A DNA stretch of 64,000 nucleotides from Escherichia coli (GTDB lineage Bacteria; Pseudomonadota; Gammaproteobacteria; Enterobacterales; Enterobacteriaceae): assembly GCF_003334355.1 (NCBI RefSeq), contig NZ_QOWP01000009.1. One strand, written 5' to 3'. The position numbers and the translations under genes are program-made. The notes below the pieces were generated by a model that saw only the letters and a program-made list of their open reading frames with translations, ran no database searches and was not told the origin of the DNA. Below are positions 18,477-64,000 of this stretch, in pieces. The stretch's first letter is position 1. Each line of letters opens with the position of its first letter.

Positions 18477-18569
18477 TAAAACAGTGAATGATAACCTCGT
18501 TGCTCTTAAGCTCTGGCACAGTTGTTGCTACCACTGAAGCGCCAGAAGATATCGATTGAGAGGATTTGA

Positions 18570-19424
18570 ATGACTGACAAAATGCAAAGTTTAGCTTTAG
18601 CCCCAGTTGGCAACCTGGATTCCTACATCCGGGCAGCTAACGCGTGGCCGATGTTGTCGGCTGACGAGGAGCGGGCGCTGGCTGAAAAGCTGCATTACCA
18701 TGGCGATCTGGAAGCAGCTAAAACGCTGATCCTGTCTCACCTGCGGTTTGTTGTTCATATTGCTCGTAATTATGCGGGCTATGGCCTGCCACAGGCGGAT
18801 TTGATTCAGGAAGGTAACATCGGCCTGATGAAAGCAGTGCGCCGTTTTAACCCGGAAGTGGGTGTGCGCCTGGTCTCCTTCGCCGTTCACTGGATCAAAG
18901 CAGAGATCCACGAATACGTCCTGCGTAACTGGCGTATCGTCAAAGTTGCGACCACCAAAGCGCAGCGCAAACTGTTCTTCAACCTGCGTAAAACCAAGCA
19001 GCGTCTGGGCTGGTTTAACCAGGATGAAGTCGAAATGGTGGCCCGTGAACTGGGCGTAACCAGCAAAGACGTTCGTGAGATGGAATCACGTATGGCGGCA
19101 CAGGACATGACCTTTGACCTGTCTTCCGACGACGATTCCGACAGCCAGCCGATGGCACCGGTGCTCTATCTGCAGGATAAATCATCTAACTTTGCCGACG
19201 GCATCGAAGATGATAACTGGGAAGAGCAGGCGGCAAACCGTCTGACCGACGCGATGCAGGGTCTGGACGAACGCAGCCAGGACATCATCCGTGCGCGCTG
19301 GCTGGACGAAGACAACAAGTCCACGTTGCAGGAACTGGCTGACCGTTACGGTGTTTCCGCTGAACGTGTGCGCCAACTGGAAAAGAACGCGATGAAAAAA
19401 TTGCGTGCTGCTATAGAAGCGTAA
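18570..19424 (+). CDS. rpoH: RNA polymerase heat-shock sigma factor sigma-32
   Basis: 284 aa ORF with sigma-70 family regions ([37 protein letters not shown]); follows ftsX. Confidence 0.96.
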
Positions 19425-37569: not shown

Positions 37570-37660
37570 GCGATCAGGAAGACCCTCGCGGAGAACCTGA
37601 AAGCACGACATTGCTCACATTGCTTCCAGTATTACTTAGCCAGCCGGGTGCTGGCTTTTT
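37570..37660 (+). ncRNA. ryhB: Iron-responsive small RNA RyhB
   Basis: GCGATCAGGAAGACCCTCGCGGAGAACCTGAAAGCACGACATTGCTCACATTGCTTCCAGTATTACTTAGCCAGCCGGGTGCTGGCTTTTTTTTT matches the RyhB sequence as I recall it; ends in hairpin GCCAGC-CGGGT-GCTGGC plus a T9 tract; lies between yhhY and yhhX. Confidence 0.9.
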
Positions 37661-37780
37661 TTTTGATCTTTCGTTCTCAATTTATCCACGGGAGTGCTTG
37701 TGTTCGTTATGCGCACTCCAGTAGGAACCACGTCCGCTTTGCGCTAAGGTGTAAATAACCACCTTAAAAAGGACGAAATC

Positions 37781-60831: not shown

Positions 60832-61590
60832 ATGAAACAAACACAACGTCACAACGGTATTATCGAACTGGTTAAACAGCAGGGTTATGTCAGTACCGAA
60901 GAGCTGGTAGAGCATTTCTCCGTCAGCCCGCAGACTATTCGCCGCGACCTCAATGAGCTGGCGGAGCAAAACCTGATCCTGCGCCATCATGGCGGTGCGG
61001 CGCTGCCTTCCAGTTCGGTTAACACGCCGTGGCACGATCGCAAGGCCACCCAGACCGAAGAAAAAGAGCGCATCGCCCGCAAAGTGGCGGAGCAAATCCC
61101 CAATGGCTCGACGCTGTTTATCGATATCGGCACCACGCCGGAAGCGGTAGCGCACGCACTGCTCAATCACAGCAATTTGCGCATTGTCACCAACAATCTC
61201 AACGTTGCTAACACGTTGATGGTAAAAGAAGATTTTCGCATCATTCTCGCCGGTGGCGAATTACGCAGCCGCGATGGCGGGATCATTGGCGAAGCGACGC
61301 TCGATTTTATCTCCCAGTTCCGCCTTGATTTCGGCATTCTGGGGATAAGCGGCATCGATAGCGACGGCTCGCTGCTGGAGTTCGATTACCACGAAGTTCG
61401 CACCAAACGCGCCATTATTGAGAACTCGCGCCACGTTATGCTGGTTGTCGATCACTCGAAATTTGGCCGTAACGCGATGGTCAATATGGGCAGCATCAGC
61501 ATGGTAGATGCCGTCTACACCGACGCCCAGCCGCCAGTAAGCGTGATGCAGGTGCTGACGGACCACCATATTCAACTGGAGCTGTGCTGA
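60832..61590 (+). CDS. glpR: Glycerol-3-phosphate regulon repressor GlpR (DeoR family)
   Basis: 252 aa ORF with N-terminal DeoR HTH (ELVEHFSVSPQTIRRDLNEL). Confidence 0.93.
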   Translation: MKQTQRHNGIIELVKQQGYVSTEELVEHFSVSPQTIRRDLNELAEQNLILRHHGGAALPSSSVNTPWHDRKATQTEEKERIARKVAEQIPNGSTLFIDIGTTPEAVAHALLNHSNLRIVTNNLNVANTLMVKEDFRIILAGGELRSRDGGIIGEATLDFISQFRLDFGILGISGIDSDGSLLEFDYHEVRTKRAIIENSRHVMLVVDHSKFGRNAMVNMGSISMVDAVYTDAQPPVSVMQVLTDHHIQLELC

Positions 61591-63170
61591 TCCTGCAATG
61601 CTTCCCAGGTCAGACCAAAACGCGCCAGGTATTTGCGTAGCCGATCCGCGTCATTGACGCTGGCTTTGCCCTGGCGCGAAACATCAAAAAGCTGTCGTCC
61701 GGCAGCAGAAAGCGACTTTGCCTGGCGGCAGATAGCGATAACGTGTTCCAGTTGCATACGGTCGAAGAGATCGATGTTTTCTGCCTCTGCGCCCAGCAGT
61801 TGCGTAAGCGCGGAGGGACGGCTCTCCTGCCAGTTATAGCGCAGACGGTTTATCTCATCTTCAACCACGTCCAGAGTGATGCGTCCGCTAGTGGCAAAGG
61901 TTGCCATCCGCGTGACGCTGGCAGAAAGCTCGCGAAAGTTACCGCGCCATGTCGCCTGAGGAGATGTTGCAAAGGCCAGCCAGGCACGCCGCGCTTCGGT
62001 GTTAAAACGCACGCTGTCGCCGGTGAGTGAGGCGTGGCGCTCCACTTCATAATCCAGGTTAGGTTCAATATCTTCCTGGCGCTGGCGTAGCCCCGGCAGG
62101 GTGAAGGTCCAGAGATTGATCCGCGCGTACAGATCTTCGCGGAATTTGCCTTCGGCAACCAGCTGGCGCAAATCGCGCACCGTTCCGGCGATAAGCTGAA
62201 AATCACTGCTCACCTGGCGATCGCTGCCAAACGGGTAAAAGGTTTTCTCTTCAATGGCTTTTAGCAGCATTGCTTGTTCGTCTGCGCCCAGTTCGCCAAT
62301 CTCATCAAGAAACAACATTCCGCCGTTGGCGCTGCGTAATAAACCTTCACGAGATTCCCGCGCCCCGGTAAACGCGCCTTTTACATGACCAAACAGCGTC
62401 GACATGGCGGTATCGCCGCGCAGGGTGGCGCAGTTCACTTCCACAAACGCGCCGCTAAACTGACGCCGCGCCTGTTTTAACTCGAAGATGCGTCGCGCCA
62501 GAAATGACTTGCCCGCGCCGGTTGGACCGTTAAGCAGAATCGGCGCGCGGGATTTGATCGCCACTTTTTCGATCTGCTCAATCATGCGGTTGAAGTGGGG
62601 GTTACGCGTGGCAATGCCGGACTTAAGAAAATCAAGCGTTTGCTGGCGTTCCTCGGCAAAGCGGCTGGCGATGGCGTTATAACGGCTTAAATCGAGATCG
62701 ATAATCGTCACTTCACCTGCGCCGCGCGGCTGTTCTTTTTTGCGCGGAGGTGAAGATTGTATCAGCCGGGCGGGCAGGTAACGCGCTTCCGCCAGCAGAA
62801 ACCAGCAAATCTGCGCGACGTGGGTGCCGGTGGTAATGTGAATTAAATAGTCTTCTTTTTCTGGCTGAAACTCGTAACCACGGGCGAAATCATGCAGGCA
62901 AGCGTAAACCTCTTCGAAATCCCACGGGTTATGCAGTTCAATCTCAACGCTCACCACTTCTGTTTCTGGCGAAACGCTGGCGATATCGCGTTTAAGCGTT
63001 TCAAATAGCGAGCGCGAGCGGGCGTCATGCAATAATTCCAGTCGATCGATGACCAACGATTCTTGCTGGCATAAACAGAGTGTCGGAAGCCATTTCGACC
63101 AGCGCTGACTGCCGCGCCCGGCATAATCCAGCACGGTACCGACAAAGCCAAAAGCCACTGTTTTACGCAT
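61572..63170 (-). CDS. rtcR: Sigma54-dependent transcriptional activator RtcR
   Basis: 532 aa ORF with AAA+ bEBP core (GPTGAGKS Walker A, GAFTGA sigma54-contact motif); divergent from rtcB. Confidence 0.93.
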
Positions 63171-63304
63171 CTTAGATATCCTTATAAAAGACGATATTTC
63201 ATTATCGGTGAATTGGTTTTGTGGAAAATCTCCGTTTACGGACGTAAAGATTTAACCTATTTAAAAACAATGAATTAAAAAATTAATCTGCTTATTTAAT
63301 TTTC

Positions 63305-63320
63305 TGGCACGACGGTTGCA
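63305..63320 (+). promoter_or_regulatory. Sigma54 (-24/-12) promoter of rtcB
   Basis: TGGCAC-N5-TTGCA (TGGCACGACGGTTGCA), a perfect match to the sigma54 consensus, about 40 bp upstream of the rtcB start and adjacent to divergent rtcR. Confidence 0.85.
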
Positions 63321-63358
63321 ATTATCACGACAGCAAACAACGAAAAGAGAAAAACAAA

Positions 63359-64000
63359 ATGAATTACGAATTACTGACCACTGAAAATGCCCCGGTAAAA
63401 ATGTGGACCAAAGGCGTGCCGGTAGAAGCCGATGCGCGTCAGCAACTTATTAATACGGCGAAGATGCCGTTTATTTTCAAACACATTGCGGTAATGCCTG
63501 ATGTACACCTGGGTAAAGGTTCCACCATTGGTAGCGTGATCCCGACCAAAGGGGCGATTATTCCGGCGGCGGTGGGCGTGGATATTGGCTGTGGAATGAA
63601 CGCGCTGCGTACCGCGTTAACGGCGGCAGACCTGCCTGAAAACCTGGCAGAGCTGCGTCAGGCGATTGAAACGGCCGTGCCGCACGGGCGTACCACTGGC
63701 CGTTGTAAACGTGATAAAGGCGCATGGGAAAACCCGCCTGTTAACGTCGATGCGAAATGGGCTGAGCTTGAAGCCGGTTATCAGTGGTTAACGCAAAAAT
63801 ATCCCCGTTTCCTGAATACCAATAACTATAAACACCTGGGAACGCTGGGAACCGGTAACCACTTTATTGAAATCTGCCTTGATGAGTCGGAGCAGGTGTG
63901 GATTATGCTGCACTCCGGTTCACGCGGAATTGGTAACGCCATCGGGACTTACTTTATCGATCTGGCACAAAAAGAGATGCAGGAAACGCTTGAGACGTTG
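63359..64000 (+). CDS. rtcB: RNA-splicing ligase RtcB, N-terminal part (runs off window end)
   Basis: ORF from ATG 63359 (MNYELLTTENAPVKMWTKGVPVEADARQQL...) continues to the window end. Confidence 0.9.
   Translation, partial: MNYELLTTENAPVKMWTKGVPVEADARQQLINTAKMPFIFKHIAVMPDVHLGKGSTIGSVIPTKGAIIPAAVGVDIGCGMNALRTALTAADLPENLAELRQAIETAVPHGRTTGRCKRDKGAWENPPVNVDAKWAELEAGYQWLTQKYPRFLNTNNYKHLGTLGTGNHFIEICLDESEQVWIMLHSGSRGIGNAIGTYFIDLAQKEMQETLETL

Follow-up and report, generated by a model that had tools for sequence, protein, structure and literature searches.

The interval between rtcR and rtcB, at 63171..63358 of the 64,000-nt stretch of Escherichia coli DNA analysed here (the window), is almost certainly the divergent rtcR–rtcBA spacer that controls the E. 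coli RNA-repair operon, and it carries an already characterised, textbook sigma-54 promoter under the neighbouring activator RtcR. This promoter is in routine use as a reporter and in itself adds nothing new. The one new part of the present analysis is that it proposes an RtcR enhancer and an IHF site in testable form, the conservation footprint narrowing 63171..63300 to two elements (Table 1). Later work speaks of "the rtc UAS" and of "the rtc IHF site" and gives no coordinates for them, and a phased dyad together with an IHF-like site provides a testable map of these cis elements. Induction of Rtc has a bearing on tolerance to antibiotics that target the ribosome and on signalling by tRNA fragments.

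TABLE 1. Features of the rtcR–rtcB control region and its surroundings (window coordinates; A2, alignment of 11 enterics).
Feature	Position	Strand	Details
rtcR	61572..63170	-	sigma-54 enhancer-binding activator; N-terminal RtcR/CARF, AAA+, C-terminal helix-turn-helix
A2 island 1	63168..63207		rtcR start, ribosome-binding region and dyad
Probable Shine-Dalgarno of rtcR	63179..63183	-	AAGGA, 8 nt before ATG; block kept in A2
Conserved dyad, candidate RtcR UAS	63192..63207	.	CGATATTTCATTATCG (CGATA-N6-TATCG); centre 131.5 bp upstream of the start
Escherichia-specific segment	63215..63242	.	inverted repeat TCCGT-TT-ACGGA at 63231..63242; AtoC 20-mer at 63215..63234
A2 island 2	63259..63280		AAAAATCAAT block
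IHF-like site	63265..63277	+	AAACAATGAATTA; WATCAANNNNTTR with one mismatch; centre at -60
A2 island 3	63304..63322		-24/-12 element
Sigma-54 -24/-12 promoter of rtcBA	63305..63320	+	TGGCACGACGGTTGCA = TGGCAC-N5-TTGCA; GG 63306-63307, GC 63318-63319
rtcBA transcription start	63331	+	C after A63330; 28-nt leader; prediction in PMC4591121 and ApC primer in PMC9650030
A2 island 4	63339..63352		leader AACGGAAATGGGA
rtcB leader, purine-rich ribosome-binding region	63339..63358	+	AACGAAAAGAGAAAAACAAA; homologous to the AACGGAAATGGGA leader before rsr in other enterics
rtcB, 5' part (RNA ligase)	63359..64000	+	ORF cut by the window end; rtcA beyond the window

The rtcR–rtcB locus and its sigma-54 promoter

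Within the window the surroundings of the spacer read glpD / glpE-glpG-glpR / rtcR / rtcB. The same order, continued as glpD, glpE, glpG, glpR, rtcR, rtcB, rtcA, malT, is found in E. coli BLR(DE3), which is identical to the window over 63000..63500, and E. coli genomes with 100% identity across this interval carry annotations of rtcB followed by rtcA. In a profile search, the product of the divergent gene matched the NCBIfam model NF038308 over residues 1-527 with 847.7 bits against a cut-off of 650, and the Pfam domains RtcR (PF06956, residues 2-185) and Sigma54_activat (PF00158, residues 187-354) were identified in it. The protein has the complete set of RtcR/CARF, AAA+ and C-terminal helix-turn-helix regions of the full-length RtcR equivalog. 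The activator required by a sigma-54 promoter is encoded by this divergent neighbour gene, an AAA+ protein with a GAFTGA loop at residues 265-270. The first 213 residues of the rtcB ORF match RtcB-family models, with scores below the whole-protein cut-offs because the ORF is cut at the window end.

The gap between the two genes is 188 bp long with a G+C content of 30%. Its part at 63171..63300 reaches 26% G+C compared with 52% window-wide, a value equalled or undercut by 28 of 6387 windows of 130 nt. Close to the rtcR start codon, AAGGA is probably the Shine-Dalgarno sequence of this gene, as judged from its position and conservation. On the other side of rtcR, the convergent 3' ends of glpR (60832..61590, +) and rtcR overlap by 19 bp (61572..61590), as is likewise annotated in BLR(DE3).

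The exact pattern TGGCAC-N5-TTGCA occurs once in the window, compared with 0.08 expected matches, and at least one match was found in 8 of 100 shuffles. With its flanks (CTGGCACGACGGTTGCAAT) the motif agrees with every specified position of the extended consensus YTGGCACGrNNNTTGCW, and GG and GC lie exactly 10 bp apart within TGGCAC-N5-TTGCW. We also scanned the window with a sigma-54 matrix built from 28 Salmonella ChIP-chip sites, from which the orthologous rsr site had been left out. The rtcBA motif received the top score of the window, 19.5 bits (the training sites range from 16.1 to 23.2), a value reached by 5% of 300 random 64-kb windows. By itself, the motif is only suggestive, and it is its position and context that make it non-random: it is intergenic and oriented toward rtcB, with 38 nt between the end of its -12 element and the rtcB ATG at 63359.

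These results agree in most details with the earlier note, which had placed TGGCAC-N5-TTGCA at 63305..63320 on the plus strand, about 40 bp upstream of rtcB and adjoining a divergent enhancer-binding protein RtcR with a GAFTGA motif. The motif was found exactly there, its spacing and the identity of RtcR are as claimed, and the sigma-54 matrix scan proposed in that note ranks it first. The view that this is the expected architecture of the RNA-repair operon is borne out by the identities of rtcR and rtcB and by the identical published promoter of K-12. The span assigned to the feature, 63171-63360, corresponds to the spacer, but it ends within the rtcB start codon, at the second base.

The rtcBA promoter was reportedly first mapped, by primer extension, by Genschik et al. 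in 1998, and the sigma-54 promoter has reportedly been confirmed since then. The identical K-12 motif, CTGGCACGACGGTTGCA, is OS35, a peak from ChIP-seq of sigma-54, which has a fold above threshold of 17 and is flagged as experimentally confirmed in EcoCyc (Bonocora et al., PMC4591121). The transcription start predicted for OS35, 19 bp past the motif centre and 28 bp before rtcB (PMC4591121), maps to window position 63331. In vitro, the native promoter has been primed at -1/+1 with ApC (Kotta-Loizou et al., PMC9650030), a primer that fits A63330/C63331; no other AC occurs in this part of the K-12 sequence. A start at 63331 places GC at -13/-12 and GG at -25/-24 and is thus compatible with the -12 element; the incompatible start named in the earlier note as evidence to the contrary does not appear in these secondary sources.

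Dependence of the rtcBA promoter on RtcR and sigma-54, as well as repression by the CARF domain, has been published (PMC9650030). The 175 nt before the rtcB ATG suffice for RtcR-dependent activation and titrate RtcR in multicopy (PMC5175333; PMC9650030), and the published reporter fragment (PMC5175333) corresponds to window 63184..63358. Although it has the consensus sequence, the native promoter has been reported as very weak in vitro (PMC9650030). In Salmonella, the orthologous site TGGCACGCTGGTTGCAAT is bound by sigma-54 in ChIP-chip and has sigma-54-dependent reporter activity (PMC3844500). Nothing contradicts the promoter assignment.

Two other elements of the window were recognized in the course of these scans. 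A second consensus sigma-54 motif, CTGGCACAGTTGTTGCT, is present at 18513..18529 (+), 56 nt before the rpoH ORF (18570..19424, +), and is identical to ChIP-seq site OS36, a published sigma-54-dependent rpoH promoter (PMC4591121). Its matrix score of 15.3 bits is at chance level for such a window, and its identification relies on position and literature, not on the score. The small RNA RyhB is encoded at 37599..37663 (+) (RF00057, 83 bits) and is the sole Rfam family that reaches its gathering score within the window.

Conserved elements of the spacer across RtcR loci

A total of 26 RtcR loci were gathered, 18 by genome scan and 8 through protein look-ups. About 24 of them contain a sigma-54 motif 130-190 bp from the rtcR start codon that points away from rtcR, and the loci with such a motif span Escherichia, Pseudomonas, Betaproteobacteria, Desulfobulbus, and Desulfovibrio. 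The alignment of 11 enterics (A2) revealed four conserved islands amid otherwise unalignable sequence, including approximately 55 bp next to the dyad in which these enterics could not be aligned. A C-terminal segment of RtcR (AGR.LF..SR..K followed by a ten-residue stretch) is nearly invariant, and the ten-residue stretch is invariant across 16 taxa. This is the predicted recognition segment, and its invariance across the same taxa leads us to expect a shared DNA target.

The arms of the dyad CGATATTTCATTATCG are invariant in the 11 enterics except at one position (T28; G in one sequence), and its central 6 bp vary. At the genus level it is perfect in nine of 21 loci and present with at most one mismatch in 12 of 21, compared with shuffle means of 0.00 and 0.06, respectively; the nine perfect copies are all enteric and share ancestry, and they are not independent. 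The copies with at most one mismatch include those of Pseudomonas sp. GD03944 and Chitinolyticbacter, the flanks of which are unrelated. The dyad centre precedes TGGCAC by 103-107 or by 115-118 bp, distances that form two classes about one helical turn apart, and in the window a further half-site-like TATA (63183..63186) is located one helical turn from the dyad. Across 11 non-enteric loci, 29 copies of GATA/TATC were counted in the 65 nt adjoining rtcR and four in the remaining spacer, a ninefold enrichment, and these half-sites are often 10 bp apart. A clear dyad was not seen in the distant loci of Calditrichia, Desulfogranum, and Desulfovibrionaceae. The dyad pattern with at most one mismatch is not rarer in the window than expected by chance, and therefore only its conservation carries weight.

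Other repeats were considered as well. A repeat finder with a 6-nt seed missed the dyad, which has 5-nt arms, and the AT-rich repeats that it returned were dropped since they are not conserved in A2. An unbiased count of 4-mer dyads in 14 loci also gave ATAA-N14-TTAT and TTAT-N8-ATAA, which are AT-rich and have a different centre.

The dyad lies within the published 175-nt RtcR-responsive fragment, and its position at -131.5 is a typical enhancer distance. It is a strong candidate, from its sequence and placement, for the activator dyad expected 80-150 bp upstream of the start, and it is phased to the -24 element. We lean slightly toward regarding the dyad, together with GATA/TATC half-sites one turn apart, as the enhancer of RtcR in taxa that range from Enterobacteriaceae to Pseudomonas and Betaproteobacteria. 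Bound RtcR would also repress its own gene, given that the dyad is 21 nt from the rtcR start codon and reads CGATAAT, with a -10-like GATAAT, on the rtcR strand. The suggestion in the earlier note that the AT-rich stretch 63171..63300 probably holds the upstream activating sites is consistent with the 175-nt reporters, and the candidate can now be narrowed to 63192..63207. According to PMC9650030, the rtc region contains a UAS as well as a site for IHF, and the "rtc IHF binding site" is named there without its sequence; the sequence of the hybrid promoter is absent from the supplements of that paper. The RtcR enhancer was listed as not known in a 2016 review (PMC4987338), and in the accessible literature, including that later than this review, we found no RtcR binding-site sequence or footprint.

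Between the candidate enhancer and the promoter, AAACAATGAATTA agrees with the IHF consensus WATCAANNNNTTR at all but one position and forms a conserved block in A2. In 19 of the 25 loci scanned, an IHF-like match on the same strand has its centre 24-25 or 34-36 bp ahead of TGGCAC, nine times without and ten times with one mismatch. In Escherichia the distance from this site to the -24 element is approximately 10 bp longer than in other enterics, so that the helical phase is preserved and the spacing equals that in Pseudomonas and Betaproteobacteria. Both the dyad and the IHF-like site keep their distance to the -24 element across taxa, allowing for one helical turn. We infer that AAACAATGAATTA is an IHF site.

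Downstream of the promoter, the AACGGAAATGGGA…ATG leader (window 63339..63361) precedes rsr, which encodes Ro60, in most enterics (L024, L025, L026, and L027), whereas E. coli, L028, and a single lineage of Salmonella (L023) have it directly before rtcB. This sharing of the leader by rsr and rtcB suggests that the rsr/Y-RNA module was excised exactly at the start codon. A 27-codon remnant starting with MANLLQFRS, which is followed by rtcB, is kept in Klebsiella oxytoca (L005). In Accumulibacter (L008), Pseudomonas sp. GD03944 (L009), and Chitinolyticbacter (L030), tRNA-like elements (Rfam tRNA, 41-60 bits) are found between the sigma-54 promoter and any ORF; these elements are probably Y-RNA-like modules below the threshold of the YrlA model.

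Alternative explanations and a proposed mechanism

The enhancer might instead be sought in the Escherichia-specific segment 63215..63242, whose repeat lies about 95 bp upstream of the start, with the dyad serving only the expression of rtcR. The distance of this segment is typical of an enhancer, it falls within the 175-nt functional fragment and contains an inverted repeat, and its first 20 nt (63215..63234) are the reverse complement of a 20-mer from the K-12 rtcB-rtcR spacer that was positive in ChIP of overexpressed AtoC, another enhancer-binding protein (PMC3118216); the window strain differs from K-12 at three of these 20 positions. However, the segment is unalignable outside Escherichia, yet the predicted recognition helix of RtcR is invariant from E. 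coli to Desulfovibrio. K-12 and the window differ at four positions within the segment, the K-12 base at 63235 shortening the arms of the repeat, and no equivalent repeat is found in Salmonella, Klebsiella, and Enterobacter, where the promoter is likewise RtcR-dependent. Not conserved and variable between strains, the segment was rejected as the enhancer and is probably not part of the conserved control logic, which makes this explanation quite improbable. A different explanation, which we regard as rather unlikely, is that the block 63171..63207 is conserved as the rtcR promoter or leader, or as the operator of another regulator, and that RtcR binds elsewhere or weakly and activates largely from solution. 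Several observations fit it: the dyad read on the rtcR strand is CGATAATGAAATATCG, which contains a -10-like GATAAT that is kept in most enterics and makes the right arm with two spacer bases (ATTATCG) more conserved than strict symmetry needs, and the Shine-Dalgarno sequence and start codon of rtcR adjoin the dyad. Some enhancer-binding proteins also activate without DNA binding, and one such variant was used in PMC3844500. On the other hand, RtcR is titrated in vivo by multicopy promoter fragments (PMC9650030). Both arms of the dyad are symmetrically conserved around a variable centre, as is characteristic of a site for a dimer and not of a -10 box alone; the dyad is phased to the sigma-54 element even in Pseudomonas sp. 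GD03944 and Chitinolyticbacter with their unrelated flanks; and a simple sigma-70 and terminator scan of 63100..63420 found no promoter or terminator. A use of GATAAT as the rtcR -10 element is speculative. Part of the dyad conservation could serve the promoter or leader of rtcR itself, and this role and that of an RtcR site are not exclusive. It is common among such activators, for example PspF and NtrC, that one site activates the target and autoregulates the activator gene.

It is hardly credible that the rtcBA motif is a chance or non-productive site, similar to many intragenic ones in E. coli, and that rtcBA uses another promoter. An equally good motif is found in about 5-8% of random 64-kb windows, most E. 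coli sigma-54 ChIP sites are not known promoters (PMC4591121), and some RtcR-independent rtcBA expression has been mentioned (PMC9650030). Against this, the motif is intergenic, correctly oriented and close to the rtcB ATG, it lies beside the gene of its cognate activator, and its position is conserved across phyla; moreover, the published reporter activity is sigma-54- and RtcR-dependent, and the idea of a chance site is already contradicted by published genetics.

With the dyad as the preferred enhancer, the following sequence of events may be proposed. As published, sigma-54 RNA polymerase waits on 63305..63320 as a closed complex; it is unable to start alone. RtcR from the divergent gene is held inactive by its N-terminal CARF domain until RNA-damage signals appear, the release from CARF being published. 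Freed RtcR might then assemble about 131 bp upstream on the dyad 63192..63207 with its flanking half-site, and a bend by IHF at the putative site around -60 (63265..63277) may bring it to the polymerase. ATP hydrolysis by the AAA+ domain of RtcR, acting with its GAFTGA loop, then opens the promoter, and rtcB-rtcA is transcribed from C63331, in line with published work. The general enhancer-dependent sigma-54 model is restated in PMC9879122.

Comparison with known systems

The region is the same locus as the K-12 PrtcBA promoter with rtcR (Genschik et al., 1998; Engl et al., 2016; Kotta-Loizou et al., 2022). K-12 and the window do not differ by a single base in the dyad, the -24/-12 element, the IHF-like core, or the rtcB leader, and they share glpR and malT as flanking genes. 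Within the 188-bp spacer, single bases differ at 11 positions, all of them outside the conserved elements and none in 63168..63209 or 63288..63327; C63328, 3 nt before the start, is G in K-12. The window allele matches that of B and C strains of E. coli (501-nt probe 63000..63500, 100% identical). This probe was found in 4858 of 5426 complete E. coli genomes, always annotated as rtcR next to rtcB, and the remaining 568 are without the junction. Where present, the rtcR-rtcB junction is unusually polymorphic, with 828 genomes only 90-95% identical to the window allele.

The rsr promoter of Salmonella Typhimurium, which drives the RtcR-dependent rsr-yrlBA-rtcBA operon, shares the divergent rtcR, the IHF consensus, and the same leader with the E. 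coli region. It contains the dyad CGATA-N6-TATCG 21 nt from the rtcR start and a promoter element of the form TGGCACG-N4-TTGCAAT, and its IHF-like site is separated from the -24 element by 10 bp less than in Escherichia. In LT2, as in most of the other enterics, transcription begins with rsr (Ro60) and the genes of the Y RNAs YrlA/YrlB, whereas rtcB directly follows the leader in E. coli.

In the model promoters pspA/PspF and glnAp2/NtrC, dimer-type enhancer sites are located about 100-150 bp upstream, an IHF site is placed between the enhancer and the -24/-12 element (the IHF bend in the case of pspA), and the activator gene is divergent, with the sites overlapping its own control region. The rtcBA region has the same layout, with the candidate enhancer and the IHF-like site in the corresponding places. 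RtcR differs from PspF and NtrC in its sensing domain (CARF), in its candidate enhancer sequence, and in the signal to which it responds, RNA damage.
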